A DNA stretch of 20,000 nucleotides from an uncultured virus (IMG/VR IMGVR_UViG_3300017978_000189) (IMGVR_UViG_3300017978_000189), one strand, 5' to 3'; positions 3,784 through 19,754 are shown, numbered from the stretch's first letter. Notes: generated from the letters alone by a model not told the origin. Numbers and translations are program-made.

Positions 3784-4419
3784 ATGGCTTTGTATCTCAG
3801 AGAAAACCTAACATTCGACAATGCTAATATCATTGTTGAAAGTGAAGGTGACGGTAGTAAGAAGTCCCTTTATATGAAGGGCATCTTCATCCAGGGCGGG
3901 GTAAAAAACGCAAATGAGCGTGTTTACCCTGTTTCCGAAATTGATAACGCCGTCAATACTCTCAACGAACAAATCAAAACAGGCTATTCAGTACTAGGCG
4001 AAGTTGACCATCCGGATGATTTAAAAATCAATTTGGATCGTGTATCTCATATGATTACTCAAATGTGGATGGACGGACCAAACGGATTCGGCAAGCTAAA
4101 GATTTTACCAACTCCAATGGGACAGTTAGTGTCTACTATGTTGGAGAGTGGTGTTAAGTTAGGCGTTTCAAGTCGTGGTAGCGGTAACGTGAATGACTTA
4201 GACGGCAGAGTTAGTGACTTTGAAATAGTCACGGTTGATATTGTCGCTCAACCTAGCGCTCCTAATGCGTATCCAAAAGCAATTTATGAAGGCATGATGA
4301 ATATGCGTCATGGTCATAAGATGCTTGATATTGCAAAAGAAGCACAATCAGACAGAAAAGTACAGAGATACCTACAAGAGGAAGTAACTCGCCTCATCAA
4401 GGATCTCAAAATTAAATAA
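3784..4419 (+). CDS. gp21: Prohead core protease, T4 gp21-like
   Basis: 211 aa with motifs GIFIQGGVKNANERVYP, LGEVDHP (catalytic His), LGVSSRGSG (catalytic Ser) and VDIVAQPSAPNAY. Confidence 0.95.
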   Translation: MALYLRENLTFDNANIIVESEGDGSKKSLYMKGIFIQGGVKNANERVYPVSEIDNAVNTLNEQIKTGYSVLGEVDHPDDLKINLDRVSHMITQMWMDGPNGFGKLKILPTPMGQLVSTMLESGVKLGVSSRGSGNVNDLDGRVSDFEIVTVDIVAQPSAPNAYPKAIYEGMMNMRHGHKMLDIAKEAQSDRKVQRYLQEEVTRLIKDLKIK

Positions 4420-4431
4420 AGGGGATTAAGC

Positions 4432-5529
4432 ATGTTAGATGCTATCAAACCATTACTTGAATCTGGACTTATCAACGAAGAAACTTCTTCTGCTTTGAAT
4501 GAAGCATGGGAATCTAAGTTGAATGAAGCTAGAGAACAAGTTCGTGCTGAACTACGTGATGAATTTGCACAACGTTACGAGCATGATAAATCAGTTATGG
4601 TCGACGCCCTAGATAAAATGGTATCAGAAGGTCTATCAGTTGAAATTCAAGAATTCAACTCTGAAAGACAAGCAATGAATGAAGACCGTGTTAAAGCGCA
4701 AGTAAAATTGCGTGAAAACGTAAGCAAGTTCAATGATTTCATGGTAAAGCACTTATCAGAAGAAATCAAAGAATTGCGCTCAGAGCGCAAGCTACAGTTA
4801 GAAAGTCAGCAAAAGTTGGAACAATTCGTTGTTTCTGCTCTAGCACGTGAAATCAAAGAATTCTCACAAGACAAACAAGCTGTTGTTGAAGCTAAGGTCA
4901 AGTTAGTTGCGGAAGGTCGCTCACAACTAGAAGCATTGAAGGCAAAATTTGTTGCTGAATCTGCTAAACGTGTGAACGAAGCTGTTACATCACATCTAAA
5001 GGGTGAATTGACTCAATTGAAAGAAGATATCCAGACTGCCCGTGCAAACGATTTTGGTCGCCGTATTTTCGAATCATTCGCAACCGAATTCTCTGCTACT
5101 CACTTGAATGAGAAAGCCGAGACTAGAAAGCTAATGTCTGCATTAGCTCAAAAAGAACAGCAATTAGCTGAGTCTTCAAAACAAATCGCTCAAGCTAAGA
5201 AATTAGTCGAAAGCAAAGAACGTGAAGTTCGTATTATCAAAGAATCTAATAGCCGTACAAAAGCTATGGATGAGTTGCTAGGTACTCTAAATGAGGAAAA
5301 AGCAACTGTAATGCGTAACTTACTAGAAAGCGTACAAACTGCAAAATTGCAGTCCGCTTTCGATAAGTATCTACCAGCAGTGCTCAACACTAGCTCAGAA
5401 AAGAAGGCTGGAAAGTCTATGATTTCTGAATCAGTTAAAGAAGTAACTGGGGATAAAACTGCCATCAAACAAGTTGAAGCCGAAGGACGTGATAACGTTA
5501 TCGACATTAGACGTTTGGCAGGGCTATAA
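4432..5529 (+). CDS. gp22: Prohead core scaffolding protein, T4 gp22-like
   Basis: 365 aa, E/K/A/L-rich coiled-coil character, motif GRRIFESFATEF, located between protease and MCP; SD AAGGGG. Confidence 0.8.
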   Translation: MLDAIKPLLESGLINEETSSALNEAWESKLNEAREQVRAELRDEFAQRYEHDKSVMVDALDKMVSEGLSVEIQEFNSERQAMNEDRVKAQVKLRENVSKFNDFMVKHLSEEIKELRSERKLQLESQQKLEQFVVSALAREIKEFSQDKQAVVEAKVKLVAEGRSQLEALKAKFVAESAKRVNEAVTSHLKGELTQLKEDIQTARANDFGRRIFESFATEFSATHLNEKAETRKLMSALAQKEQQLAESSKQIAQAKKLVESKEREVRIIKESNSRTKAMDELLGTLNEEKATVMRNLLESVQTAKLQSAFDKYLPAVLNTSSEKKAGKSMISESVKEVTGDKTAIKQVEAEGRDNVIDIRRLAGL

Positions 5530-5558: not shown

Positions 5559-6761
5559 ATGTCACAAGTTCTATTAGAAAGCCGTTGGGACGAGACCAAA
5601 GATACCCTGCTCGAAGGTTTAAAAGGTACTCGCCGCTCAACTATGGGTGTCATCTTGGAAAACACCAAGAAAGCATTGTTGTCAGAATCGGCAGCAGGCA
5701 CAACTACAGCTGGTAATGTAGCAACACTTAACCGTGTTATTCTTCCAGTTATCCGTCGTGTAATGCCAACAGTTATCGCTAACGAGTTGGTAGGCGTTCA
5801 GCCAATGACAGGTCCAGTTGGTCAAATCCACACATTGCGTGTTCGTTATGCTCAAGGTCTTGACGACCAATCATCAGCTCAAACTTCTGTTACAGCTGGC
5901 GAAGAAGCATTGTCACCATTCAAAATCGCTCAAGCATATTCTACAGTTAAGAATGACGCATCGGTTGCTAACAGCTACCGTGGTGCTTCTACTTCTACTC
6001 TAGAAGGTAACGGCGGTAAGCAAATCAGCGTACAAATCTTGCGTCAAGCTGTTGAAGCTAAGTCACGTAAGTTGCAAGCACGTTGGACATTTGAAGCTGC
6101 TCAAGACGCTCAATCACAACACGGTATTGACGTTGAAGCAGAAATCATGGCTGCTCTAGCACAAGAAATCACTGCTGAAATCGACCAAGAGATTCTATTG
6201 TCTCTAGGTTCATTGGCAACTGTTGAAGATACATACAACCAAGCTAACGTTTCTGGTACAGCAACTTTCGTTGGTGACGAACACGCTGCTTTGGCTGTTC
6301 TTATCAACCGCGCTGCTAACCGTATCGCTCAACGCACTCGTCGTGGTGCTGGTAACTGGGCTGTTGTTTCTCCAGCTGCATTGACAGTATTGCAATCTGC
6401 AACTACTTCAGCGTTTGCTCGTACAACAGAAGGTACTTTCGAAGCTCCAACAAACACTAAGTTAGTTGGTACATTGAACGGTGCTATGAAAGTTTATGTA
6501 AACTCATACGCTACTGATGACGCTGACGTTCTAGTTGGTTACAAAGGTTCAAGCGAAACTGACGCTGCTGCGTTCTACTGCCCATACATCCCATTGATGT
6601 CATCTGGTGTTGTTCTAGATCCAGCAACATTCGAACCAGTCGTATCATTTATGACTCGTTACGGATATGTTGAGTTGACAAACACAGCATCATCATTCGG
6701 TAATGCTGCTGACTACTTGGCTGCTATCGGTATCAACTCCGACAACCTATCATTCTATTAA
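5559..6761 (+). CDS. gp23: Major capsid protein, T4 gp23-like
   Basis: 400 aa with motifs LPVIRRVMP..IANELVGVQPMTGPVGQI, VEAKSRKLQARWTFEAAQD..QHGIDVEAE, VGYKGSSETDAAAFYCPYIPL and DPATFEPVVSFMTRYG; SD AGGAG; strong codon bias. Confidence 0.97.
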   Translation: MSQVLLESRWDETKDTLLEGLKGTRRSTMGVILENTKKALLSESAAGTTTAGNVATLNRVILPVIRRVMPTVIANELVGVQPMTGPVGQIHTLRVRYAQGLDDQSSAQTSVTAGEEALSPFKIAQAYSTVKNDASVANSYRGASTSTLEGNGGKQISVQILRQAVEAKSRKLQARWTFEAAQDAQSQHGIDVEAEIMAALAQEITAEIDQEILLSLGSLATVEDTYNQANVSGTATFVGDEHAALAVLINRAANRIAQRTRRGAGNWAVVSPAALTVLQSATTSAFARTTEGTFEAPTNTKLVGTLNGAMKVYVNSYATDDADVLVGYKGSSETDAAAFYCPYIPLMSSGVVLDPATFEPVVSFMTRYGYVELTNTASSFGNAADYLAAIGINSDNLSFY

Positions 6762-6890: not shown

Positions 6891-7262
6891 ATGGCACAAA
6901 ACAACGCTAAAATTCACAGTGCAACTACACCTCAATCAAACTTCGCAACACGTAAACTAGCTTTCGTGGTTGTTGATATGAACACAGACGTTGAAACAGA
7001 TTTCGACACAATCGGTTCAGTATACCAGAAGGCAGTTCAAGGTATCCAGCAAATCGCTGAAATCTACGCATTGGGTCAACCTAATGGTGAATTATTCACG
7101 GTTATCTTATCTGATGACACATTACCGTATGATGACGGTCAAGAGTTTGCTGACGGTGGCGAAAATTCTCCGTTATCAAGAGCAATCCGCGAAACTACAG
7201 GCGTACAAGGCGCATGGGCTTGGAACGCTAACTTAAACGGCGACAACTTGAGCTACGATTAA
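6891..7262 (+). CDS. Small virion protein, paralogue 1 (possible capsid decoration protein)
   Basis: 123 aa; SD AAGGA; own promoter and terminator; first 9 aa identical to 7370..7636. Function is inferred from position after the MCP. Confidence 0.75.
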   Translation: MAQNNAKIHSATTPQSNFATRKLAFVVVDMNTDVETDFDTIGSVYQKAVQGIQQIAEIYALGQPNGELFTVILSDDTLPYDDGQEFADGGENSPLSRAIRETTGVQGAWAWNANLNGDNLSYD

Positions 7263-7369: not shown

Positions 7370-7636
7370 ATGGCACAAAACAACGCTAAAATTCACGGTT
7401 TAACAGCTCCAGCAGCATCTTTCGTAGGTAAAGACCTATTGTGGATCGCTAATGACAGCAATATGAGCAACGCTGCAACAGCAGCCGCAGCTATTCAAGC
7501 TGTTCAACAAGTAGCAACTGTAATGATTATCGGTGAAGCAACTTCAGCAGGTTTAATCTTAGCTATCGAAGGACCAACAACAGCTCCAGATGGTTGGTAC
7601 GTAGTTACTATCTCTGGCGTATCTTTCGCTGACTAA
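7370..7636 (+). CDS. Small virion protein, paralogue 2 (possible capsid decoration protein)
   Basis: 88 aa, Ala-rich; starts MAQNNAKIH; AIQAVQQVATVMIIGE aligns with AVQGIQQIAEIYALGQ of paralogue 1; SD AAGGA. Confidence 0.75.
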   Translation: MAQNNAKIHGLTAPAASFVGKDLLWIANDSNMSNAATAAAAIQAVQQVATVMIIGEATSAGLILAIEGPTTAPDGWYVVTISGVSFAD

Positions 7637-7722: not shown

Positions 7723-7750
7723 CTACATAAAATAATATTTGGGACCATTC

Positions 7751-8440
7751 ATGGCAGTAGATGCATTCAATTCGGTGGGAGGGTATACAGTTGGTATCCC
7801 ACCTACACCTATTATTAGCGAAGCAGGTGATATCACAGCTCCATCGGCAACAGTTAATCAACTAACAGTTAATGGTGATGCAACTGTAACTGGTGCGATT
7901 AGCGCCGATGTGTTTCGCGGTAGTTTTGAAGGTCAAATTTCAGGTGATATTGTATTAACTGGTAATGATACTGAGGTTGTTTTTAATAAAAACGGCGAAG
8001 CGGCATCAGACATTGGGCTAACATTTGATTATGTTAACCAACGATTGAAAGTTCAAAAAGACTTATCTGCAAACTCATTTACATTGGGTACAGGTACGAA
8101 TGAATTTTCAACCGCATCAGTTATGTTTGCGATTACGAATAGTGCTGCGGCGGGACAAGTTTTACATTTTCAATTAGCATCTAGAATATGTTCAGTTGAT
8201 TATACAATCATTGCAACAGATGCAACATCAAACATCAGACAAACAAGCAAACTATTTGCTAGTGTATTGGGTGATGATGTTGGGTATTTTGAATACGGTA
8301 CAATTGATGTTCCGCAGTCAAGTCCAGGAGTAGCTGATTTTAAAGTAGAACATATTTCTGGCAACATAGCATTAACAGTGAAGCCCATGACAGCACACAG
8401 TACGTCATATAAGATTATGGTAACAAGTTATAAAGAATAA
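7751..8440 (+). CDS. Fibre-like virion structural protein (FN..GG..VG N-terminal family)
   Basis: Start re-assigned from TTG 7739 to ATG 7751: GGGA SD at 7741-7744, and MAVDAFNSVGGYTVG aligns with the N-termini of the next genes. Its ~90-aa C-terminal beta domain is shared with the 776-aa and 454-aa proteins. Confidence 0.8.
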   Translation: MAVDAFNSVGGYTVGIPPTPIISEAGDITAPSATVNQLTVNGDATVTGAISADVFRGSFEGQISGDIVLTGNDTEVVFNKNGEAASDIGLTFDYVNQRLKVQKDLSANSFTLGTGTNEFSTASVMFAITNSAAAGQVLHFQLASRICSVDYTIIATDATSNIRQTSKLFASVLGDDVGYFEYGTIDVPQSSPGVADFKVEHISGNIALTVKPMTAHSTSYKIMVTSYKE

Positions 8441-8451
8441 GGAAAAAAGAA

Positions 8452-10782
8452 ATGGCAATTAGAACCTTTAACTCGGTAGGTGGTTTTTCAGTAGGCGAGA
8501 ATCCAGAAACAATCATTCTACCTAATGGTGATATCACAACAGACTTTGCTACGTTTTCAGCAAACGTTGATGCAGGTAAAATTAAAACAGATTACTTGTT
8601 ATATGCAAACGGTGTGCCTTGGGACTTCCAAGAGGCAGCTGGTGCAGCCGATGGGCAAATTCAATATTACTTAGATGGTGATTTTGGTGCATCAAGTAAA
8701 TTTGTATTCGATCCAACTTCTAACGTATTGACAGTTACAGGTAATGCTAACGTATCAGACACCTTTGTAACAGGTAACTTGCGTACTGATAACTTGTTAT
8801 ATGCAAACGGTGTAGCATGGGACTTACAAGAAGCCGCAGGTTCTGACACACAGATTCAATTCAACACCGGTGATAATTTCGATGCAAGCGCAAACTTGAC
8901 ATTTGACAGTGCAAGTAATTTACTTAAGGTAACCGGCAATGCAAACGTAACAAACACTCTTGCAACGGGTAACTTACGCACAGACAATTTATTGTATGCT
9001 AACGGAGTTGCATGGGATATTCAGCAAGCAGCAGGTGATGCATCTCAGATTCAATTCAACACCGGTGACGACTTTGATGCAAGTGCTAACTTGACATTTG
9101 ACGCAACAAATAGCGTCTTGGCAGTTGTTGGAAAAGTCACAGTTACAGGTAATGTTGAAGCACCTAGATTCATCGGTAACTTAGTTGGCAACGTCACAGG
9201 CAATGTTAATTTTGGTGGAACTGACAAGACTATTGCGTTTGTTAAAGGAAGCAATTTATATTACAGTTCAAACCTACAGTTTGACTATACATCTAACGTA
9301 TTGACGTTAACCGGAAACTTAGAAGCATCTAATGCTAATTTAGGCAATCTAACGACTTCTAATTATTTCCATGGTGTATTCGATGCAACATCTTCTAGCC
9401 AACCTAATATTCATACAGTAGGGACGTTAGACTACTTGGATGTTGACACTACGATTACTGCAACAGATGTTGAGACTGGTAATTTGAGTGTTGCTGATAG
9501 AGTAGTAACTCATTTAATTCCTAGCACTGATAACACTTACGATTTAGGTAGCTCAACTAGTTACTGGCGCAATGTGTACGCAGGCTCAAACATTTTCTTT
9601 AATGATAATGCATATCTACGTGCAATTGGTTCAGTTGTATACACTGACGCAATGTACATCGAAAACGGTATGTCGGCAGACACTGTTACATCACGTGGTG
9701 ATGCGTTCTTAGAAGGCGATGTAACCGTTTCAGGTAATTTGACTGTAAGCGGTTCAACTACTTACATTAACGTAACTAACATGGATGTTAAAGATCCGTT
9801 GATTAGTCTAGGTGGTTCTGGTAACGGTGCAAACTTAGCACACTATGATGGTAAAGACCGCGGCTTAGTATTACGTAACAGAACAAGCGATGACCAGTTT
9901 GTACAAAACCAAGCGTTCATTTGGAGTACAACAAACGATGAATTCCGAGCATTTGCTAATGTTACTTCTATTGCTGGTGAAGTTGTAGAAGGCGACATCT
10001 ACGCTAACATTCATGGTAACGTATTTAAAGGTAATGTTGAAGGTTTAATCTTAACGAACAATCAAACTTATATTAATCAAGTTGGTGTGTTGGATGACTT
10101 AGTAGTTGACGGCACATTGCAAGTTAATACTCATGCAAACGTTGCGTCATTTGAAGCAAGCGGAATGCAATACCCATTGACTGATGGTTCACAACGTCAA
10201 GTGTTGAGTACAGACGGTCAAGGTGAATTATATTGGGCAACGATTGATACATATCGTTTGGCTAATGGTACAAGTAATGTGTCTGTTGCAGGTCCCGGAC
10301 CAGACAATCCAACAGGTCTTGGTGGCACAGTTTCAGTGTCAGTTGGTGGAGTTGCTGATGTAGTAGTTATTGACACTAACCAAGTAGATATTACTGGCAA
10401 TCTAGTAGTAACAGATACTACAACGACTAATGTATTAAAAGTTGCAAATAGCACTGTTGGCACAGCGGTCTTAACTACATCAAGTATTTCTACTGACACT
10501 ATCTTATCACTAGCAGTTGCAGATTTTAGAGCAGTTGAATACTTTATTAAGGGCGAAGATGACACCGCATATAAGTATAGCGTAGCGACAATTTCTGCTG
10601 TGCATAATAGCGTTGATGCTGTTGAATATTCAACATACGGTGCGATTCATTCGGGTGCATCAACTGGAACATTTGATGTAGTGTATGATGATTCTGATCC
10701 TGATAATCATTTAATTAAATTAAAGGTAACTCCGTCGTCTGGCAATGAAACAGTCTGGACAGTACAGTATAGAATAATTTAA
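8452..10782 (+). CDS. Fibre-like virion structural protein with internal ~65-aa repeats
   Basis: 776 aa; G/T/N/V/A-rich; three TDxLLYANGVxWDxQxAAG repeats; KDP..DGKDRG module; shared C-terminal domain (DFRAVEYFI..H..YG.I); SD AAGGA. Confidence 0.85.
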   Translation: MAIRTFNSVGGFSVGENPETIILPNGDITTDFATFSANVDAGKIKTDYLLYANGVPWDFQEAAGAADGQIQYYLDGDFGASSKFVFDPTSNVLTVTGNANVSDTFVTGNLRTDNLLYANGVAWDLQEAAGSDTQIQFNTGDNFDASANLTFDSASNLLKVTGNANVTNTLATGNLRTDNLLYANGVAWDIQQAAGDASQIQFNTGDDFDASANLTFDATNSVLAVVGKVTVTGNVEAPRFIGNLVGNVTGNVNFGGTDKTIAFVKGSNLYYSSNLQFDYTSNVLTLTGNLEASNANLGNLTTSNYFHGVFDATSSSQPNIHTVGTLDYLDVDTTITATDVETGNLSVADRVVTHLIPSTDNTYDLGSSTSYWRNVYAGSNIFFNDNAYLRAIGSVVYTDAMYIENGMSADTVTSRGDAFLEGDVTVSGNLTVSGSTTYINVTNMDVKDPLISLGGSGNGANLAHYDGKDRGLVLRNRTSDDQFVQNQAFIWSTTNDEFRAFANVTSIAGEVVEGDIYANIHGNVFKGNVEGLILTNNQTYINQVGVLDDLVVDGTLQVNTHANVASFEASGMQYPLTDGSQRQVLSTDGQGELYWATIDTYRLANGTSNVSVAGPGPDNPTGLGGTVSVSVGGVADVVVIDTNQVDITGNLVVTDTTTTNVLKVANSTVGTAVLTTSSISTDTILSLAVADFRAVEYFIKGEDDTAYKYSVATISAVHNSVDAVEYSTYGAIHSGASTGTFDVVYDDSDPDNHLIKLKVTPSSGNETVWTVQYRII
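8587..9110 (+). repeat. Three tandem ~195-198-nt coding repeats
   Basis: Units begin at about 8587, 8785 and 8980; CAGATTCAATTCAACACCGGTGA is identical at 8851-8873 and 9046-9068. Confidence 0.85.
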
Positions 10783-10802: not shown

Positions 10803-12167
10803 ATGGCAATTAAAAAGTTCAACGCAATCGCAGGAATCTCAGTGGGTGATGTAATCATCCACGAGGTTATTGATGATTCTGCAAGTGTGATGGCTAACAA
10901 CCTAACAGTTTCCAATATCGCTGATTTAGGTGATGTTGCTAACGTTAGGGTTGCTGGCGGCACATCTGGTTTCGTATTGCAAACTGACGGCTCTGGAAAT
11001 TTATCTTGGACTAACCCGGCAGATGTAGGTTGTGTTGGATTTGACACTCACGTTCAGTTTAACGACATGGGTTTGTTTGGTGCAGACTCTAGATTTACAT
11101 TCGACAAACTTACTGGAAAACTCTCAGCTCCTTACCTAGATGGTACACTGACTACTCACGCACAAGCAAACATTACTAGCGTGGGTGTATTAGAGAGTTT
11201 AGATGTTACTGGTTTAGTAACATTAACCTCAGTTGATAATTTGATATTGCCCGGTGGTTCTGCTGGATATGTTCTGACAACGAATGGACAGGGCGTAGTA
11301 AATTGGGAACCATCTTCAGGTGGTGGCTCAATAACTGAATCAGGTTTTATTGGCATAAACAAAAACAGATTTACTGCTGATGGCACACAAACTTCGTTTA
11401 CCTTAACATCTGATCCTGTTTCAGTTGATAACGTTGTAGTTAACATTGATGGATTAGTACAACAAGAACCATCATATGATTTAGTTAACGGTGCTATCGT
11501 TTTCGGAGAAGCCCCATTAGAAGGACAACACATTGAAGTGACAATGTACCACACTGTTGCTGGTTCATCTGACCCAGCTTCAGTTCCTTCAACAGAAGTC
11601 ATGTATGGTTCTGGTTCTGGTTTTGCAAGTGATGAAGATTTCACATTTAATGCAAGCACTTCTACTTTATCAGCACCTAACGTAAACGTCACTGGTGGGT
11701 ATTTAACAGTTGGAACAGCTCCGATTGCAGTAGTAAACGGAACAGCTGGTGCATTTAATACCGGTGTAACTAACGTTAACTTGGGTCTAGGTAGTAATGT
11801 TACTATTGGTTCAACTTCAGGTACTGTCACAGTTCGTGGTTCACTGCAAACAAACAGAATCGCAAGTAGTAACCAAACTGTTCAAGTCGATGGACTTGCA
11901 GTGTTAGATTCGTTCGCGGCTACTGATTTTAGGTCAGCTAAATATATTATAAGAGCAAGTAGCGATTTTGGGTATCAATCAATCGAAGTATTAATGATAC
12001 ATGATGATGTTGATGCTTTCATTACAATTTACGGTGATATTTCAACTTCTGATGTAGACGTTGTTGAAATTACTGCTGAGATTTCAGCGGGAAATGTTGA
12101 ATTGTATGCAACTTCAATCGCTGCGAATACGACAGTAAAAATAATGGGGACTTACTTAGCCGACTAA
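10803..12167 (+). CDS. Fibre-like virion structural protein
   Basis: 454 aa; starts MAIKKFNAIAGISVG; two GG..G.VL.T.G.G...W motifs; one FTADGTQTSFTL..V.IDGLVQ..Y..F.EAP..G..IEV module; C-terminal DFRSAKYII..IHD..YG.I domain; SD AGGA. Confidence 0.85.
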   Translation: MAIKKFNAIAGISVGDVIIHEVIDDSASVMANNLTVSNIADLGDVANVRVAGGTSGFVLQTDGSGNLSWTNPADVGCVGFDTHVQFNDMGLFGADSRFTFDKLTGKLSAPYLDGTLTTHAQANITSVGVLESLDVTGLVTLTSVDNLILPGGSAGYVLTTNGQGVVNWEPSSGGGSITESGFIGINKNRFTADGTQTSFTLTSDPVSVDNVVVNIDGLVQQEPSYDLVNGAIVFGEAPLEGQHIEVTMYHTVAGSSDPASVPSTEVMYGSGSGFASDEDFTFNASTSTLSAPNVNVTGGYLTVGTAPIAVVNGTAGAFNTGVTNVNLGLGSNVTIGSTSGTVTVRGSLQTNRIASSNQTVQVDGLAVLDSFAATDFRSAKYIIRASSDFGYQSIEVLMIHDDVDAFITIYGDISTSDVDVVEITAEISAGNVELYATSIAANTTVKIMGTYLAD

Positions 12168-12182
12168 GCAAGTATAAAATAG

Positions 12183-12761
12183 ATGGTAACAAAAAAGTTT
12201 AACGTCAGAGATGGTTTAAAAGCAGGTAGCATTGTACTTGATTCCGTAACGGGTAAGATTAACGCCGTTGACTTAGACGTAACAAACAAAGTATCGGCAG
12301 TAGAATTATCAGTCGATAAAGTCTCATCAAACATTATCCCTAAAACAAACAACACTTACGATATCGGTGAGGTAGCTAAGAAGTTCAAAGACTTACACCT
12401 TGCTGGTAACATCAATATCGGTACTCAGACTATCTCTGCTACTGCATCAGGGCTAGCATTGTCGGGCACATTGGAAGTTACTACTGCAAATGCGACTACT
12501 GTTAACGCTACAACTGTCAACACAACCAGCCTAAATACTGACGTAGCAACGGTTAATGAGCAATTGGTCATAAATAGTACTATAGATGCTACATCCACGG
12601 ATACAGGCTCTATCGTAACAGCAGGCGGTGTCGGCATTATGAAAGATTTGTATGTAGGTGGTGCGATTCATTTGGCTAACGGTCTCGGTGGGACTGGGTC
12701 AAAGGGTAAAATCAACTACAATGATGGTGTTGATAGTATCGATTTTAATTTTAACGGATAA
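12183..12761 (+). CDS. Short fibre-like protein (possible proximal segment)
   Basis: 192 aa; N-terminus MVTKKFNVRDGLKAG resembles those of the three upstream genes; IP..NNTYDIG module; C-terminus homologous to that of the 1398-aa protein. Confidence 0.8.
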   Translation: MVTKKFNVRDGLKAGSIVLDSVTGKINAVDLDVTNKVSAVELSVDKVSSNIIPKTNNTYDIGEVAKKFKDLHLAGNINIGTQTISATASGLALSGTLEVTTANATTVNATTVNTTSLNTDVATVNEQLVINSTIDATSTDTGSIVTAGGVGIMKDLYVGGAIHLANGLGGTGSKGKINYNDGVDSIDFNFNG

Positions 12762-12766
12762 AATTT

Positions 12767-13624
12767 ATGACAAGTACAGTTGGTGCAAGATTAGTGAATG
12801 ATGGTACGCTGATTACAGCGGGGGAGTTCGATGAGACTCTCCAATCCACGCATTCAATCAAAGCTACCGGAGTCTTTGCCGAAGAATTTGATGAAATTAC
12901 TTTACCTGCAGGTCTACCTTCAGGTGGTGCGATTTCATTTAATGGCACATCCCAATATTTAACAATCTTGGGCGACATTGACTTTGGTTTCGGAACAGGT
13001 GATTTTACAATCGAGGGATGGTTCTTCTTACGAAGCACAGCCCATATGCGTTTGTGGTATTTCCCTGGTGGCGACACATTAGAAGTCAACGATGGGGTTC
13101 TATATTATTGGGATGGTACTGACAGCAACGGTGTTGTCACTTCAGGTCCTAGCGCAATTCCGCAGCAACAATGGTTCCATATTGCCCTTGAAAAACACAA
13201 TGGTGTGGTCAACGGCTACATTAATGGTCAATCTCATATTACAGATAACTCACCTTACTCTGGTACGAACAGTCGTGCTATGTCAATCGGTGGTGACTTA
13301 ACCGGTGATACTGATACTCTTTTATATGGCTACGCTACTAACATTAGAGTAGTTAAAGGTATCGCAGTTTACAGAGGTGAGTTCGACATGCCTGTTGAAT
13401 CTTTATCTGATACACAAAATACTGTATTGTTGTTGAAAGTAGCAAATCAAACTGATATGTTATTAGATTCTTCATCAACTGGCAAGCAGGTAACGAATAA
13501 CGGTAGTGCACCGTTTGATTCAATTACTCCATTAACGACAGTGTACAATGGGGCAATGAAACAATTAAGGTCAGGAACATTGCAAGTTGCAAATATCATT
13601 GACGAAGTAACAACTATAAGTTAA
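12767..13624 (+). CDS. FDE-repeat protein with an inserted Concanavalin A-like/LamG lectin domain
   Basis: 285 aa; LamG-type motifs FGTGDFTIEGWF, QWFHIAL..NG...GYING and GYATNIRVVKG.AVY. The flanks align with the entire 75-aa protein at 17863. Confidence 0.8.
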   Translation: MTSTVGARLVNDGTLITAGEFDETLQSTHSIKATGVFAEEFDEITLPAGLPSGGAISFNGTSQYLTILGDIDFGFGTGDFTIEGWFFLRSTAHMRLWYFPGGDTLEVNDGVLYYWDGTDSNGVVTSGPSAIPQQQWFHIALEKHNGVVNGYINGQSHITDNSPYSGTNSRAMSIGGDLTGDTDTLLYGYATNIRVVKGIAVYRGEFDMPVESLSDTQNTVLLLKVANQTDMLLDSSSTGKQVTNNGSAPFDSITPLTTVYNGAMKQLRSGTLQVANIIDEVTTIS

Positions 13625-13656
13625 TACATTATAGAAAACCAAAAGGAAAATAAAAA

Positions 13657-16600
13657 ATGGCAAAGTTAAAAGACTCTAGAGTTTACGGTAATCTCGACAT
13701 TGATAGTGTATTGACCGTAGCAAGCGACACAACTATCAATGGTAACTTGACGGTTACCGGTAACACTATCTACTCTTATGTAGATACAATGAAAATTACA
13801 GACCCAATCTTGGAATTGGGCGGCGGCGCTGATGGTGCAGCTTTAGAAACAGACGACGGTAAAGACCGCGGTGAATTACTTCACTACTATGACGGTGGTG
13901 TTATTGATGCGTTCATGGGCTGGGATAACTCAGCAAGCGAATTCGCATTAGGTAGTAACGTTTCTGTTACTAACGAAGTTGTTACATTCAACACATATGG
14001 TAACTTACGTGCTGGCACATTCTTTGGTAATGGTTCTGGCTTAACTAGTCTTGCAGGTAGCAACGTTACTGGTACAGTTGGTTATGCTAACATGTCATCA
14101 TATGCAGGTATCGTAACTGCAAGTTCACAACCAAACATCACATCTGTCGGTACACTAGTTGATATCGCTACAAGTGGAAACATTACTGCTGACGGCACAC
14201 TAGAAGTTACTGGTGAAAGTACATTGACAGGTGACGTATCAATGTCAGGCAATGCAACTGTTACAGGTAACTTGACTGTTACTGGTACAATTTATGCTGA
14301 CGTTGCTGGTTCATTGACTGCCCCTGGTACAACTACTCAAGTATTGTTTAACGACGGTGGACAAGTTAACGCAGTTGCAGGTTTCACATTCAACAAGTCA
14401 ACTCAATCATTGACATTAGCTGGTGACCTTACTGGTGACACGATTACAGGTAACTTGTTCTCAGGTGACGCTGGTAGCTTATCAAATATCGTAGGTGCCA
14501 ACGTAACTGGTTACGTTCCAGACGCAGACCATGCTACTATTGCTAACGTTGCTAACGTTGCTTACTCGATTGCTGGCGGAAACGTTTCAGGTGAAGTCGC
14601 AGTAGCAAATACAGTTTCTAACCCAACACAAGGTAATATTACTAGTGTCGGTACATTAACAAGTTTGACTGTTTCTGGTAATATTTCTGGTCAAGCTAAT
14701 CTAGCTATTACAAGCAACGCTACTATCGGTGGTGACCTTGCTGTAACAGGCGACATTTCCGGTGCAGATGGTACGTTCTCTGGTACGATGGAAGTTACTG
14801 GTAACGCAAACGTTGCTAATTTAGGTACAGGTATTGTATCTGCAACAGGCAATGTTACTGGTGCAAACTTGAATACTGCTGGTACTGCAAACATCGGTAA
14901 CTTAGAAATTTCAGGTAAGACAAAGGGTCACTTGATCCCAGACGCAAACGTTACATACGATTTGGGTAATTTGTCACATCGTTGGAATGACTTGTATCTA
15001 AGCGGTGACACAATTTATTTGGGCGACCAGACTATCGAAGCCAATGCAACTGCATTGTTCACTAGTGCTGACCTTGGTGCAAATAATATCACAGCAACAG
15101 CAAACGTTACTGCTAGTAATGTTTATGCTAACTCTGGAACAGTTAAAGCTGCCCACTTTGTTGGTACAATCGACACTGCTTCACAAACTAACATCACTCA
15201 AGTTGGTACATTGGTATCACTAGATGTTACAGGTAACGCTGCTGTTGGTAACTTATTGACTGACCACTTGCTATACGCAAACGGTCAACCTTGGGACTTG
15301 CAACAAGCTGCTGGTTCTACTGGACAACTACAATTCAATGATGGTAATGATTTTGCTGCAAGCGCAAACTTAACATACAGCAACACAGGCGCAGGTACTT
15401 TAACTGCTGCCGGTAACATTGCTGCTGCTAAATTATCATCTACTGGAAACACTGAAGTTGGTGCTGATTTATCTGTAACAGGTAATGCTTCTGTAACAGG
15501 TGACATCACTGGTGCTTCTATTGATGTTTCAGGTACTGCAACTTCTGGCAACGTATCAACAACAGACGTAACTGCTACTGGTAATGTTTCTGCTACTGGT
15601 AATGTTTCTGCTGACACAGTTGTTACTAACGATGTTGTTGCATCTTCAGGCGACTTGACTCTAAGCGGTCAAGGTACAAACGCTAACGTTGTTCTAGCTC
15701 CAACAGGTACTGGTACAATTTCTGCTTCAAGCAAGCGCATTACTAACTTGGCTACTCCATCTGCTGATACTGACGCAGTTACAAAGGGTTATGTTGATTC
15801 TGTTGCTCAGGGTCTCGATGTTAAAGATTCAGTACGTGCTGCTACTACTACTGCATTGGCTGATGCAACATACGATGACAGCGCAAAGACTATCACTGGT
15901 GGTCAAGCTGCATTGATGATTGACGGTGTTGGTGTAGAAAATGGCGACAGAGTTCTTGTTAAGGATCAAGCCGATGCTAACGAAAACGGTATCTATACTG
16001 TAACTGCAAAAGGTTCTGTATCAGCAAGCTGGGTGTTGACTCGTGCTAGTGACTTTGATGAAGCAACTGATGTTGTATCGGCATTCACTTTCATTGAAGA
16101 AGGTTTTAGTTACGCAGATACTGGTTGGGTTTGTACAACAAACGCTCCTGTAACTCTAGGCACAACTAACATTGTTTGGAGTCAATTCTCCGGCGCAGGC
16201 GCATACACTGCCGACAACGGTATTGAATTAGACGGTACAGTATTCAAAGCAATTGTTGACAATTCAACAATTGATATTGTAGGTGGCGCATTGCACGTTA
16301 AAGATGGTTTGACTTTAGTTACACCAAATATCGGCGCTGCAACTGGTACAAGTTTAGATTTATCAGGTAGTGTTGACGTTGGTGGTGACCTTGCTGTTAC
16401 TGGAAACGTTGATGCAAACAACTTCAACGGTACATTCTACGGTTCTTTCGTTGGTACAGTTGATGCGACAGTTGGTGCTGCTGGTTCTAACACTGAAATT
16501 CAGTTTAACGATGCTGGCAACATTGGTGCAAGCACTGCATTCACGTTCAATAAAACTTCAAACACTCTAAGTATTGTTAACATTACAGCAACTGGTGACG

Positions 16601-17853
16601 TTTCTGTTACAGGTAACGTATCTGCTACAAACTTGACAGGTACATTGACAACTGCATCACAAACAAACATCACTAGCGTTGGCACATTGGGAACATTGTC
16701 TGTTACTGGTACTGCTACTGTAGGTAATGTATCTACAACAGGTACAGTTGATGCAGGCTTCTTGATTGGTGATGGATATCAAATTGGTAATATCACTGGT
16801 GCAAACATTACTGGTTATGTTGCTGACGCTGACCACGCTACAATCGCTAACGTTGCAAACGTAGCATATAGCATTTCAGGTGGTAACGTTTCTGGTGACG
16901 TAGCAGGTGCAAACCATGCAAATATTGCTGATACTGCAAATGCAGTGTCAGGTGGAAACGTATCTGGTCAAGTCGGTAATGCTTTGATTGCTGGTACTGT
17001 TTACACAAACGCACAACCAAATATTACTAGTGTTGGTACATTGGTAGATTTGACAGTTACAGGTAACATTGCTACTGGTGGTATTCTAACTGATAACTAC
17101 TACTATGCAAACGGTGCTGCTGTTGACTTCCAAACTGCTGCAGGTAACGCAGGTGAAATTCAATTTAAGACTTCATCAGGTGATGACTTGGCTGCAAGTG
17201 CAAACTTGAAGTTCAATAGCTCAACAAGCGTATTGACAGTTACTGGTAACATCAGCGGTGCTAACGTAATTTCTGCAACTACAGTAACCGCAACTGATTT
17301 GACAGGTACATTGACAACTGCATCACAGACTAACATCACTAGTGTTGGTACATTGACAACCGTTACTGTTGCTGGCGCAACTAACTTAGGTGCTGTTGCT
17401 AACGTTCACATTGACGGTGGTTCATCTGGTCAGTACTTACAAACTGATGGTTTAGGTACATTGTCTTGGTCAACTATCAATACTACTGAAATCACTAATG
17501 GTACAAGTAATGTTTCTATCCCAGTAGCTGACGGTAACGTTTTCATCAACGTTGGTGCAACAGAGATTATCAAAGTAACTGGTGTTGGTGCAAACGTAAC
17601 TGGTACTATCAATGCTACTGGTAATGTAACTGCTGATAACATCACTGCTGCTAACGTAATTGTTGCAGAAGGTGATGTAGCTGCGACAAGTGCAATTACT
17701 GGTACAGTTAAAGTTGCTGGTGGTATGAGTGCTACAGGTAACATCTACACAGGTAAAGCTGTTGGTTTCGCTAATAACAACGGTGGAACAGACAGTGCTG
17801 CTTATATTCAATTCAACAGTTCTGCAAATAGCTTAGACTTTATCTTCAACTAA
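13657..17853 (+). CDS. Long tail/head fibre-like protein
   Basis: 1398 aa of G/T/A/N/V-rich beta repeats. It carries a YadA/HIM neck-like motif RITNLATPSADTDAVTKGYVD followed by a GLDVKDSVRAATT..GDRVLVKDQ..ENGIY..TRA.DFD phage tail-fibre domain; SD AAGGA. Confidence 0.88.
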   Translation: MAKLKDSRVYGNLDIDSVLTVASDTTINGNLTVTGNTIYSYVDTMKITDPILELGGGADGAALETDDGKDRGELLHYYDGGVIDAFMGWDNSASEFALGSNVSVTNEVVTFNTYGNLRAGTFFGNGSGLTSLAGSNVTGTVGYANMSSYAGIVTASSQPNITSVGTLVDIATSGNITADGTLEVTGESTLTGDVSMSGNATVTGNLTVTGTIYADVAGSLTAPGTTTQVLFNDGGQVNAVAGFTFNKSTQSLTLAGDLTGDTITGNLFSGDAGSLSNIVGANVTGYVPDADHATIANVANVAYSIAGGNVSGEVAVANTVSNPTQGNITSVGTLTSLTVSGNISGQANLAITSNATIGGDLAVTGDISGADGTFSGTMEVTGNANVANLGTGIVSATGNVTGANLNTAGTANIGNLEISGKTKGHLIPDANVTYDLGNLSHRWNDLYLSGDTIYLGDQTIEANATALFTSADLGANNITATANVTASNVYANSGTVKAAHFVGTIDTASQTNITQVGTLVSLDVTGNAAVGNLLTDHLLYANGQPWDLQQAAGSTGQLQFNDGNDFAASANLTYSNTGAGTLTAAGNIAAAKLSSTGNTEVGADLSVTGNASVTGDITGASIDVSGTATSGNVSTTDVTATGNVSATGNVSADTVVTNDVVASSGDLTLSGQGTNANVVLAPTGTGTISASSKRITNLATPSADTDAVTKGYVDSVAQGLDVKDSVRAATTTALADATYDDSAKTITGGQAALMIDGVGVENGDRVLVKDQADANENGIYTVTAKGSVSASWVLTRASDFDEATDVVSAFTFIEEGFSYADTGWVCTTNAPVTLGTTNIVWSQFSGAGAYTADNGIELDGTVFKAIVDNSTIDIVGGALHVKDGLTLVTPNIGAATGTSLDLSGSVDVGGDLAVTGNVDANNFNGTFYGSFVGTVDATVGAAGSNTEIQFNDAGNIGASTAFTFNKTSNTLSIVNITATGDVSVTGNVSATNLTGTLTTASQTNITSVGTLGTLSVTGTATVGNVSTTGTVDAGFLIGDGYQIGNITGANITGYVADADHATIANVANVAYSISGGNVSGDVAGANHANIADTANAVSGGNVSGQVGNALIAGTVYTNAQPNITSVGTLVDLTVTGNIATGGILTDNYYYANGAAVDFQTAAGNAGEIQFKTSSGDDLAASANLKFNSSTSVLTVTGNISGANVISATTVTATDLTGTLTTASQTNITSVGTLTTVTVAGATNLGAVANVHIDGGSSGQYLQTDGLGTLSWSTINTTEITNGTSNVSIPVADGNVFINVGATEIIKVTGVGANVTGTINATGNVTADNITAANVIVAEGDVAATSAITGTVKVAGGMSATGNIYTGKAVGFANNNGGTDSAAYIQFNSSANSLDFIFN
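16633..17327 (+). repeat. Perfect 29-nt direct repeat TTGACAGGTACATTGACAACTGCATCACA (16633-16661 and 17299-17327)
   Basis: Read directly; encodes LTGTLTTASQ ahead of the TNITSVGTL motif. Confidence 0.85.
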
Positions 17854-17862
17854 GGAAGATAA

Positions 17863-18090
17863 ATGGCTACTATAGCAGCTAGATTGAATAGCTCAGGTAC
17901 ACTCTACGCCAGCAATGGCGTAGTGTTTAACGAAATCAACCAATCTAACATAAGCATCACCCCGTCGGGGGTGTTTGCTTATCAATTTGATGAAGTTTCA
18001 GGTACACTAAATAATAGAGCTATGCAACAATACGCCAACGGCGTAGTAAAAGTTTCCGGAGTTTTTGACGAAGTGACGGGAATCGCATAA
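17863..18090 (+). CDS. Small FDE-repeat protein (putative fibre adaptor); insert-free paralogue of 12767..13624
   Basis: 75 aa; SD AAGGA overlapping the upstream stop; aligns with residues 1-45 and 261-285 of the 285-aa protein. Confidence 0.8.
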   Translation: MATIAARLNSSGTLYASNGVVFNEINQSNISITPSGVFAYQFDEVSGTLNNRAMQQYANGVVKVSGVFDEVTGIA

Positions 18091-18113
18091 GTATTAAGTT
18101 GAGAATATAAGAC

Positions 18114-19754
18114 ATGGCACTATTACGTTCAGGTACACGAGTTTACGGTAACGCTCAGGTTGATACCGTTTTAACCGTTGCTGGTACGGTAGCGGCAACC
18201 TCAACTACATCAGGTGCTCTCCAAATTACAGGTGGTGCAGGCGTTGGTGGTAATTTATATGTTGGCAACAATATCGTTACATCTAAAGATGTTTCAGCCA
18301 ACAACGCTACATTTACTGGTAACTTAATTATCAACGGGAATATTGTATATTCCAACGTTGATACAATGAATATCAAAGATCCGGTCATTGAACAAGGTGG
18401 TAACCCTAACGGTTCTGCTTTGACAAACAATGACAGTAAAGACCGCGGTCAATTATTACATTACTATACAACACAACCCGTTGATGCGTTTATGGGTTGG
18501 GACAACTCTGCCGGTGAGTTTGTTTTAGGTAGTAATGTTTCTGTTAGTAATAACGTTGTTACTGTTAACGAGTATGGTAATGTCCATGCAAATTTCTTTA
18601 TTGGTAACGGTAGTCAATTAACTGGTATTTCAACATCATCATTGACTGGAAACTTTCACGCTTGTGTAGTTTCTAACGTTAGTAATATTGTTGCTGGTTC
18701 AACATTAGAAATTGTTTCTGATTATACTGATACTAACTACCCAGCAGGTGTATTCACTATCAATCAATTGGGACCTGTTTCTATCACAATGACGAATGAA
18801 TGGGCAAGTGGTGGTGCAACTAAAAATGCCTACACTAACTATTTAAATGGCATCATTAATTCTCAAAATGTCTCGGTAACTTTTGGAATTGCTAATGCTA
18901 CATTTGATGTCAAGTCTACTGATACCATCACAATCGGCGGCGCAACTATTACTGGTGCAAACATTGTAGCATTGGGTATTTCTAGCACTGGCGGAACATA
19001 TACTATTCCTAGTGGATACTTTAATTCAACCCCACAGACACAAGCAAGCGATGCAGTAAGCGTGAATTTGACTACAACACGCGGCATATATGCTGCAACT
19101 GGTACAACTTTACTAAACAATCAACCGATACCGTTTAACATTACTGCATTCTCTGGTTCGTTCCCTTCAAATTCAGTACCATACTGGAGCTTGAATCAAA
19201 CATTCAACTGGACTGCAACTAAAACATCAGGTGCTACTACTGTTTCAGGTAATTTAGCTTACGCTAACGTGTCAGGCAGTGTATCTGGATCACTAACATC
19301 TACTGGTGAGACTTCAGGAACTAGTGGGTCATTGGATAGTACATTGTCTTATTCGTTATCAAGTAGTGACTATATTGGCTCAGGCGCTTTTGGTGCAGGA
19401 ACTAGACAAATGACAACTACTGTTACAGGTGTAGTACCCGCAGCGACAAAATATTATCCATTGTTCTGGAAGACAACTTCTGACAATACGATCCCAACAT
19501 TCACAACGAGCGATTCACACAATAGTAATAACTATGCAACAGGTCAAGGTGCAAACACAACGACTACCGCAAGTAACTATACATGGCTCGCTACACCAAA
19601 TTCAACATCACATACATTCAAGCACGTTTTCTTAGGCTCAGATATTGTTGACGTACCCGACGTAACTGGTACAACTACTATCTCTGGTCAGACGTATAGT
19701 GTATGGGGTTTCACTAATTTTAGTCAAGTAACAACGATTGTGACGACTTCATAA
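18114..19754 (+). CDS. Fibre-like protein, possible distal/receptor-binding segment
   Basis: 546 aa. The N-terminal ~170 aa are homologous to the 1398-aa N-terminus (RVYGN; DTM.I.DP..KDRG.LLHYY..DAFMGWDNSA.EF.LGSNVSV); the S/T-rich C-terminal region is unique in the window. Confidence 0.85.
   Translation: MALLRSGTRVYGNAQVDTVLTVAGTVAATSTTSGALQITGGAGVGGNLYVGNNIVTSKDVSANNATFTGNLIINGNIVYSNVDTMNIKDPVIEQGGNPNGSALTNNDSKDRGQLLHYYTTQPVDAFMGWDNSAGEFVLGSNVSVSNNVVTVNEYGNVHANFFIGNGSQLTGISTSSLTGNFHACVVSNVSNIVAGSTLEIVSDYTDTNYPAGVFTINQLGPVSITMTNEWASGGATKNAYTNYLNGIINSQNVSVTFGIANATFDVKSTDTITIGGATITGANIVALGISSTGGTYTIPSGYFNSTPQTQASDAVSVNLTTTRGIYAATGTTLLNNQPIPFNITAFSGSFPSNSVPYWSLNQTFNWTATKTSGATTVSGNLAYANVSGSVSGSLTSTGETSGTSGSLDSTLSYSLSSSDYIGSGAFGAGTRQMTTTVTGVVPAATKYYPLFWKTTSDNTIPTFTTSDSHNSNNYATGQGANTTTTASNYTWLATPNSTSHTFKHVFLGSDIVDVPDVTGTTTISGQTYSVWGFTNFSQVTTIVTTS

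Follow-up and report, generated by a model that had tools for sequence, protein, structure and literature searches.

A three-gene junction found twice in the fibre cluster of a large uncultured T4-like phage, and a probable fibre with two joints in series

The reach of a phage over its hosts is decided by its fibres and, to our knowledge, little has been established beyond T4 about how fibres made of several proteins are joined. This question is raised by a 20,000-nucleotide (nt) stretch of DNA from an uncultured virus (IMG/VR IMGVR_UViG_3300017978_000189), analysed at its full length and referred to here as the window. Its fibre gene cluster contains the same junction twice: the C-terminal end of one fibre protein (X), the product of the next gene (B) and the N-terminal start of the fibre protein encoded after that (Y) all recur, and the protein in the middle has both a Y start and an X end. 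An earlier reading made from the sequence alone (the sequence-only reading) had proposed that X-B-Y is a coupling that joins segments into an extensible fibre. Do these junctions mark joints, and are the proteins of 192, 1398 and 546 amino acids (aa) on either side of them parts of one structure? From the sequences and a predicted complex, we consider it probable that the three proteins are segments of a single fibre, joined end to end in gene order via B adaptors.

Terminal elements and their conserved order

Pairwise comparison with BLASTP bore out the claim that one three-gene junction is present twice (E 5e-10 to 4e-36 over the X, B and Y similarities), and the peptides quoted for it were all found. 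The X ends were similar between residues 77-191 of the 192-aa protein and 1297-1398 of the 1398-aa protein (36% over 116 columns, E 5e-10), and the Y starts between residues 1-157 of the 1398-aa protein and 1-197 of the 546-aa protein (44%, E 4e-36), the latter carrying a 40-aa insert within this similarity. The adaptors of joint 1 (B, or B285, 285 aa) and joint 2 (B', or B75, 75 aa) differ fourfold in length and were alike in two separate stretches, residues 3-45 of B285 with 2-46 of B75 (44% identity, E 1e-8) and residues 250-285 of B285 with 42-75 of B75 (39% identity, E 1e-5). That all three similarities fall at protein termini, and in one order, indicates that the repetition is not due to chance. 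The positions of all elements are given in Table 1.

Both fibre elements were confined to protein ends. With profile hidden Markov models (HMMs), 150 of the 155 open reading frames (ORFs) matched by X finished no more than 1 aa from the C-terminus, and 221 of the 225 matched by Y began within the first 5 aa; 16 ORFs were matched by both models, the 1398-aa protein among them. Across distant phages the conserved part of Y was limited to the first ~22 aa, after which Y proteins diverge widely. A ~110-aa domain (..D..DRG...Y......AF.GWD.S..EF..G..) that follows the Y start in the 1398-aa and 546-aa proteins was also found inside the 776-aa fibre-like protein of the window (aa 423-532) and in structural proteins of the cyanophages S-RIM12, Syn33 and P-TIM40 at 40-44% identity. 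Because Y proteins differ so widely beyond ~22 aa, this domain is taken not to be part of the joint, and the whole ~150-aa Y similarity was dropped as a candidate docking element since the domain also lies inside other fibre proteins.

In distant contigs the gene before B ends in an X-like sequence (...GG.G..GN.Y.G..VGF......VYQ.YN...NSLDT.FG) and the gene after B opens with MAKL.SGTR.YGN. A separate motif, TGAL.V.GG.G..GN.Y.G, occurs on both sides of the joint: it opens the X elements and follows the Y peptide in the 546-aa protein and, by alignment consensus, in most Y proteins elsewhere.

Distant B genes were located with a DNA pattern for the last B motif together with the B HMM, and X and Y were then searched separately in IMG/VR with DNA patterns covering the element only. 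The X-end pattern returned 50 loci (42 clusters at 90% nt identity); 49 of the 50 were in frame, and all 49 of these matches lay exactly 4 aa before the stop. A gene matched by the B HMM followed directly in 47 of the 49 (B protein 71-1126 aa), and after these 47 B genes came a Y start in 39, the end of the locus in 6 and another gene in 2. The Y-start pattern returned 116 loci, with B directly upstream in 81 (end of B no more than 200 nt before the Y start; 80 under a slightly different set of criteria), no B in 4, and 31 undecidable, where there was too little upstream DNA or the upstream gene ran off the locus; many of the upstream genes at these 31 loci end in the LamG tail typical of B-LamG proteins. 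Counted by cluster (n = 71), 56 had B, 11 were undecidable and 4 had none. The recurrence of the order X-B-Y, which the sequence-only reading had proposed as a test in other phage genomes, was thus seen across many unrelated IMG/VR contigs, whether they were found from the X, the B or the Y side.

Some contigs with the triad shared nothing detectable besides it, and what was conserved there amounted to ~22 aa of Y and ~48 aa of X. This bears on the possibility that the pattern is the trace of a tandem duplication of a cassette of fibre gene and small gene, with termini that have no coupling function. In the window itself the Y similarity does run to ~150 aa and many internal repeats are shared, as they would be in duplicated fibre genes. 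A bare duplication is nevertheless a very improbable explanation: it would not lead one to expect triads in such unrelated contigs, X and Y elements that are strictly terminal, or a complex model that passes its controls (see below).

Closer relatives kept the whole arrangement. Nine IMG/VR loci found through B75 and fifteen full-length relatives found through B285 had one gene order wherever the DNA sufficed, namely an X-ended protein of 149-203 aa, a B with LamG of 283-322 aa, a protein of 1380-1696 aa that opens with Y and closes with X, a second B, of 75-77 aa, and a Y protein of 546-1370 aa. This order, with a second B of 75-80 aa, was counted in 25 locus-strands, the window included, several of which share a contig. 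Conservation is higher in the joint parts than in the shaft: identity to the window was 73% for X2 (last 70 aa), 67% for B' and 36% for the shaft in one relative (L003), and 63%, 60% and 36%, respectively, in another (L009). A complete 367-kb record of the same clade had exactly two B genes and no others. In several relatives (L016-L019, L024) the domain that forms the tip of the distal Y protein (..SGQSYNYSIYGF.GFT....TTS) was also present on a protein with a different, Z-type N-end (described below) in the same contigs, so that one tip appears, from the sequences, to be presented on both a jointed and a simple fibre.

Across its diverged members the window's clade maintains versions of each part that belong to one joint: X of the ..SIDFNFNG type and of the ..SLDFIFN type, Y starting MAKLKD.. 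and Y starting MALLRS.. or MARLQS.., and B with and without LamG. Such versions are relevant to a different account, in which the joints are real and lack mutual specificity, giving mixed fibres (192-546 as well as 192-1398-546) or a middle segment joined to itself in fibres of variable length. As this account needs, each of the elements X, B and Y is similar between the two joints, and in one phage (L120, L132) the two Y starts were nearly identical over the first ~10 aa, for which reason mixed or self-joined assemblies retain some probability. The maintenance of joint-own versions is what orthogonal pairs might be expected to show, and we regard promiscuous joints as unlikely.

The adaptor module and the predicted joint

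The B module measures ~72 aa and consists of three ~24-aa tandem repeats, each starting with an ARL..G.L-like strand and ending in (F/L)(D/N)E(V/I). In 41 diverse members, the acidic positions of every repeat were invariant or nearly so. B285 corresponds to the B75 module with an insert of ~200 aa between repeats 2 and 3. The insert had both the gathering score and the jelly-roll fold of a Laminin_G_3/concanavalin-A-like domain: it was matched by PF13385 (Laminin_G_3) with 34.7 bits against a cut-off of 27.6 (E 2.3e-8), and the top Foldseek matches of its AlphaFold2 (AF2) model were pentraxins and laminin-G modules (E about 1e-8). The predicted local distance difference test (pLDDT) score in the model of B285 was 86-97 for the insert and 40-59 for the repeats; B75 folded alone, with a shallow alignment, had a pLDDT of 51.

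A profile search with the B75 family against 1.84 billion representative proteins gave 164 matches at E <= 1e-3. The wider family is visible only by profile search, a word-based protein search having returned 24 close B75 clusters. Among the 150 matches listed, B was present as a stand-alone protein (~70-130 aa), as B followed by a LamG-type domain (~290-300 aa in total) or as B interrupted by an insert, as in B285; a few multi-repeat proteins among the same 150 are probably unrelated to B. Another group carries B at the C-end of proteins that start MATYYWVGG.G.W.. and are rich in beta-helix-like repeats (e.g. P0037, P0051, P0052 and P0115); in the single genomic context found for such a protein (L378, below), the next gene has a Y start.

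The B module has neither a Pfam family nor an annotated PHROG. No single Pfam family was matched by more than two of 41 B proteins; in PHROGs, 3 of the 41 matched an unannotated family. Chaperone families (gp38, Tfa) were matched by neither B75 nor B285 in Pfam or PHROGs, the Atlas gave unnamed viral clusters only (score at most 0.90), tblastn of B75 against isolate phages gave nothing at E <= 1, and the B and X profiles matched no solved chain among the PDB sequences.

The joint was modelled from three copies of the last 100 aa of the 1398-aa protein (72-row alignment), two copies of the first 62 aa of the 546-aa protein (63-row alignment) and one copy of B75. The prediction that an X trimer, B and Y would form a complex was supported, with two Y copies in the model: the score was 0.90, 0.91 and 0.90 in three runs, compared with 0.00 and 0.00 when B was replaced and 0.48, the best control, when X was replaced. 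The pass mark of this score is reached by 116 of 157 solved complexes and by 2 of 215 mismatched pairs, a calibration that is rough for a multi-chain job with its own alignments. Because the B and X profiles match no solved chain, the pass is unlikely to reflect memory of a solved structure. Contact agreement between runs was at least 84% and the pLDDT of B at least 92 (93 for B75 in the complex vs 51 alone), which fits a module that becomes ordered on assembly.

In the predicted complex the interface of each X copy was formed by residues 84/85, 89 and 92-100, i.e. essentially the last ~9 residues, and the start of each B repeat paired with one X chain. Contacts were best defined at B 5-8 (with residues 94-97 of X copy 2), B 32 (94-95 of X copy 3) and B 52-57 (94-97 of X copy 1). 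Both Y copies also contacted B, through residues 1-5 and 11. With X replaced, 42 confident contacts were left, which are taken as B-Y contacts of the model.

A third account of these results assigns B to the preceding X end only, as a chaperone or as a terminal cap or adhesin, and treats Y as an attachment peptide for a site elsewhere on the virion, so that the window would encode three separate fibres. B is small and its gene directly adjoins the 3' end of a fibre gene, by itself it is poorly ordered, its strongest modelled contacts are with X, and a LamG domain at a fibre tip would suit an adhesin. The Y data count against this account. A Y start followed B in 39 of 41 judgeable cases and B preceded Y in 56 of 60 decidable clusters; in one locus (L378) a long protein that lacks X has B as its C-end, and a gene with a Y start begins 1 nt later; and in the model Y residues 1-5 contact B, whose score with X replaced is still 0.48. 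As fibres that carry only a cap, X-bearing proteins of 79-131 aa would moreover make no sense, and B matches none of the chaperone families searched. We therefore hold three separate fibres with chaperones or caps to be an improbable arrangement, about as improbable as joints without specificity.

A fibre in gene order: assembly, number of joints and surroundings

In a fibre assembled serially from the 192-, 1398- and 546-aa proteins, the segments are presumed to be trimers and each joint would have a 3:1:3 stoichiometry, with one copy of B on the fibre axis. Each repeat of B would pair with the last ~9 residues (...NS[LI]DF.F.) of one chain of the upstream trimer, and the first residues of the downstream trimer (Y, MA.L..G.R.YGN) would dock onto the same B. 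Poorly ordered alone and folding on assembly, B would act as a staple. At joint 1 the LamG/pentraxin-like, lectin-type domain would project sideways from the first knee, and B' at joint 2 would be a bare staple. The 192-aa protein would be a short proximal piece, its Z-type N-end presumably fixing the chain to the virion. The similarities, their place at the termini, the co-occurrence and the predicted complex are results of the analysis; trimeric segments, the 3:1:3 ratio, assembly in series along the gene order, joints that are specific for their own partners, the role of the LamG domain and the site of the fibre on the virion are inferences.

The number of joints was counted in the locus DNA available rather than in genomes, with many short loci and some that share a contig. 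Of the B-bearing locus-strands, 147 had a single B and lacked a middle segment. Two B genes with one middle segment of the Y..X type (187-1696 aa) were found in 25, and in one locus-strand the locus ended with a second Y..X protein. No B-bearing locus-strand had three B genes in series; the fibres seen there have one or two joints only. A 194-kb record contained three joints in two clusters, the first with a 79-aa X protein, a 670-aa B and a Y protein of >2550 aa, and the second with a 119-aa X protein, an 813-aa B, a 187-aa Y..X protein, a 748-aa B and a 222-aa Y protein. Judged by their length, X-bearing proteins as short as 79 aa and 119-131 aa are too short to be more than connectors. An extensible fibre, as claimed at the outset, is thus seen with one and with two joints and never with three or more in series. 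The accompanying claim of swappable cassettes agrees well with middle segments of 187-1696 aa, B proteins of 71-1126 aa and a tip found also on another type of N-end.

Several points weigh against a jointed fibre of this kind and limit how closely it can be equated with that of T4. Exceptions to the gene order exist: 2 of 49 X ends lacked B, 2 of the 47 B genes at X-found loci were not followed by Y, and 4 of 71 Y clusters had a complete upstream gene without B. At least 14 long proteins (1016-2026 aa, MATYYWVGG... start) bear B at the extreme C-end and have no X. The modelled stoichiometry was assumed, with two Y copies only, and the alignments were made by the authors and unpaired, which makes the calibration rough. 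The nearly identical Y starts of the phage with L120 and L132 have been mentioned, and an assembly chaperone, too, could be a small disordered protein whose gene follows that of a fibre. The neighbours of the triad vary, being head genes in the window, baseplate genes in the cyanophage S-SRM01 and neck genes at two loci (L092, L378). Homology with the T4 proteins was not detected: hhalign gave a probability of 0.5% for B with gp35 (phrog_1154; 8 aligned columns at the gp35 C-end), 1.2% for Y with the gp36 N-end and 0.06% for X with the gp34 C-end, the B HMM did not match gp35, and the window proteins matched neither the gp35 nor the gp36 PHROGs.

Among isolate phages a typical B (P0035) had a single match, Synechococcus phage S-SRM01 (E 2e-3). 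Its gp331 (219 aa, ...NSLDFIFI end), gp332 (286 aa, B at the N-end) and gp333 (1540 aa, MALLKTNTG... start) adjoin genes annotated as baseplate wedge subunits. At loci L092 and L378 the triad lies just 5' of T4-type neck genes. As the neighbouring genes differ between phages, the assumption that the fibre is necessarily a tail fibre was dropped. Pseudomonas phage MIJ3, whose capsid protein is 65.7% identical to that of the window, is described, in the part of the account available, as having 'multiple long tail fibers' and 'thin long kinked fibers' (PMC6892783). Two B queries against the isolate-phage collection gave no match in MIJ3 or its relatives, and a DNA search of isolate phages with the fibre region 12000-19000 gave none at all.

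Every gene of the window lies on the + strand (Table 1). A T4-type portal, prohead protease and major capsid protein were all found, which identifies the phage as a T4-like (gp20/gp21/gp23) myophage; identity of its capsid protein to the counterparts in jumbo myophages, e.g. Vibrio phage 2.275.O, PA5oct and XaC1, is 63-68%. Two genes directly 3' of the capsid gene encode proteins of 123 and 88 aa with their first 31 aa in common (48% identity, E 2e-8). Neither matched Pfam or PHROG, and from their sequences they may be paralogous head decoration or accessory proteins.

The run of fibre-like genes follows this head module. An N-end of the form MAxxxFNxxxGxxxG (Z type) is common to the 192-, 233-, 776- and 454-aa proteins. 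The last three have no X end and share a C-terminal domain, which in the 454-aa (362-454) and 776-aa (686-768) proteins is 31% identical. They are probably separate fibres that use the type of attachment site used by the 192-aa protein, and all four Z-type proteins may share or compete for one kind of site. Within aa ~690-912 of the 1398-aa protein, a stretch resembling the N-end of other fibre proteins (..ATPSADTDAVTKGYVD..) is followed by a match to phrog_30390 (aa 749-912, E 1e-33); its shaft may have arisen by fusion of two fibre genes. The distal 546-aa protein consists, in order, of Y2, a TGAL..GG.G..GN motif, the shared fibre domain (aa ~64-165) and the tip domain.

Table 1. Genes and elements of the window with their positions, strand and supporting evidence.
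Feature	Position (nt)	Strand	Evidence or remark
Portal	820-2592	+	Pfam PF07230, E 4e-103; PHROGs
Prohead protease	3784-4419	+	Pfam PF03420, E 2e-29; PHROGs
Scaffold-like gene	4432-5529	+	between protease and capsid genes
Major capsid protein	5559-6761	+	Pfam PF07068, E 2e-97; PHROGs
123-aa post-capsid protein	6891-7262	+	
88-aa post-capsid protein	7370-7636	+	
233-aa fibre-like protein	7739-8440	+	Z-type N-end
776-aa fibre-like protein	8452-10782	+	Z-type N-end
~110-aa domain within 776-aa protein	9718-10047	+	
454-aa fibre-like protein	10803-12167	+	Z-type N-end
First fibre segment (putative), 192 aa	12183-12761	+	Z-type N-end, X1 C-end
X1 element, final ~48 aa of 192-aa protein (...GGVGIMKDLYVGG...DSIDFNFNG)	12615-12758	+	BLASTP vs 1398-aa C-end
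B (B285), 285 aa, putative joint 1 adaptor	12767-13624	+	BLASTP, Pfam, AF2, Foldseek
B285 repeats 1-2, aa 1-48	12767-12910	+	BLASTP vs B75
B285 LamG/pentraxin-like insert, aa ~51-250	12917-13516	+	PF13385, AF2, Foldseek
B285 repeat 3, aa 248-285	13508-13621	+	BLASTP vs B75
Middle fibre segment (putative), 1398 aa	13657-17853	+	Y1 N-end, X2 C-end
Y1 element, initial ~22 aa of 1398-aa protein (MAKLKDSRVYGNLDIDSVLTVA)	13657-13722	+	BLASTP, Y-HMM
~110-aa post-Y domain of 1398-aa protein	13726-14061	+	
N-end-like internal stretch and phrog_30390 match of 1398-aa protein	15700-16400	+	
X2 element, final ~48 aa of 1398-aa protein (...GGMSATGNIYTG...NSLDFIFN)	17707-17850	+	BLASTP vs 192-aa C-end
B' (B75), 75 aa, putative joint 2 minimal adaptor	17863-18090	+	three repeats, nothing more
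Distal fibre segment (putative), 546 aa	18114-19754	+	Y2 N-end, distinct C-terminal tip domain
Y2 element of 546-aa protein	18114-18179	+	BLASTP vs 1398-aa N-end
TGAL.V.GG.G..GN.Y.G motif of 546-aa protein	18201-18275	+	
~110-aa post-Y domain of 546-aa protein	18303-18608	+	
Open-ended gene	starts 19756	+	after 546-aa gene

The sequence-only reading knew of no description of such a coupling, and the literature, covered mostly through listings and abstracts, likewise yielded no multi-knee or segmented fibre, no cyanophage connector and no B-like module or two-knee fibre; what was found there on gp35 or a kneecap concerned T4 only. A monomeric connector between two fibre trimers is already known from T4. 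New are a compact three-repeat connector, widespread in uncultured phages and absent from Pfam and from the annotated PHROGs; terminal elements that, by their sequences, mark which fibre genes belong together; and, as sequence and model indicate, the use of the joint twice in one fibre. In practical terms, terminal elements and a 72-aa module would mark the fibre genes of one chain in many uncultured phages and in at least one isolate, S-SRM01, so that fibre clusters labelled 'hypothetical' or 'baseplate wedge subunit' become readable as assemblies. Fibres with two knees are predicted, and a compact natural connector is a candidate means of swapping fibre tips between laboratory phages.

A broader proposal is that B is a general symmetry-matching staple of T4-like phages which folds only when it clamps three C-terminal and three N-terminal strands, with orthogonal sets of X, B and Y and with gp35 as a much-diverged member. 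We offer it tentatively and think it rather doubtful. If it were true, the termini would encode the sequence in which segments assemble, fibres could gain a second knee, each knee with its own sideways cargo (lectin-type domains, B proteins of up to 1126 aa), and fusion of B to a single-chain beta-helical protein would let a trimeric fibre dock on a monomer.

Comparison with known fibre systems

The chaperones T4 gp38 and lambda Tfa and the adhesin gp38 of T2 and S16 are each encoded by a small gene directly 3' of a fibre gene, and their products act on the C-end of that fibre. The B gene is likewise small and directly 3' of a fibre gene. Unlike these partners, it is followed by a gene with a conserved docking N-end, and B matches none of their families.

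In the Klebsiella phages KP32, K11 and KP34, a conserved N-terminal peptide docks on another fibre or spike protein and makes the modules exchangeable, according to the available part of the account (PMC13352976). Docking of a conserved N-terminal peptide at a dedicated site is common to both systems. As far as that description goes, and the comparison is with the description only, the Klebsiella peptides dock on a branching domain without the help of an adaptor protein, and a branched structure arises, not a chain.

The closest parallel is the knee of the T4 long tail fibre. In the portions available of the published accounts, gp34 is the proximal trimer, gp35 a monomeric kneecap and gp36 the trimer that opens the distal half (PMC5537660, PMC3004832); gp35 joins (gp34)3 to (gp36)3-(gp37)3, and its tower-like domain is composed of residues 1-21 and 324-372, the protein also having an ILEI/PANDER-like domain and a whisker-binding CBM-like domain (bioRxiv 10.64898/2026.03.06.709160). 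The sequence-only reading had compared the junction with gp35 as a hinge. The T4 design, with its monomeric kneecap and split joint domain as given in those portions, comes closer to the window's than had been claimed.

There are clear differences. T4 has one gp35 joint followed by a direct joint between gp36 and gp37, whereas in the window the putative joint occurs twice in series. B75 bears no cargo, B can be as small as 71-75 aa and has three clear tandem repeats, and the proximal piece in X-B-Y phages is as short as 79-192 aa. One likeness at the level of sequence is weak: the Z N-end of the 192-aa protein aligns with that of gp34 over 19 columns (hhalign probability 12%, E 0.0024). The end of T4 gp35 (L376; ..KVFGQEFREV) resembles that of a B repeat (..GVFAYQFDEV), with an hhalign probability of only 0.5% over 8 columns; this likeness may be chance or a trace of common descent.

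Two features are shared. A single connector chain at the meeting point of two trimers, as at the T4 knee, is a prediction for the window, from a confident model of 3 X, 1 B and 2 Y whose stoichiometry was assumed. The gene order 34-35-36 corresponds to upstream fibre, connector and downstream fibre in the window; and a joint domain is made from the N- and C-ends of the connector with cargo inserted between them, the same split topology being found in B285. Membership of the gp35 family is not proven, and by this comparison the system of the window is one that works like the T4 knee.

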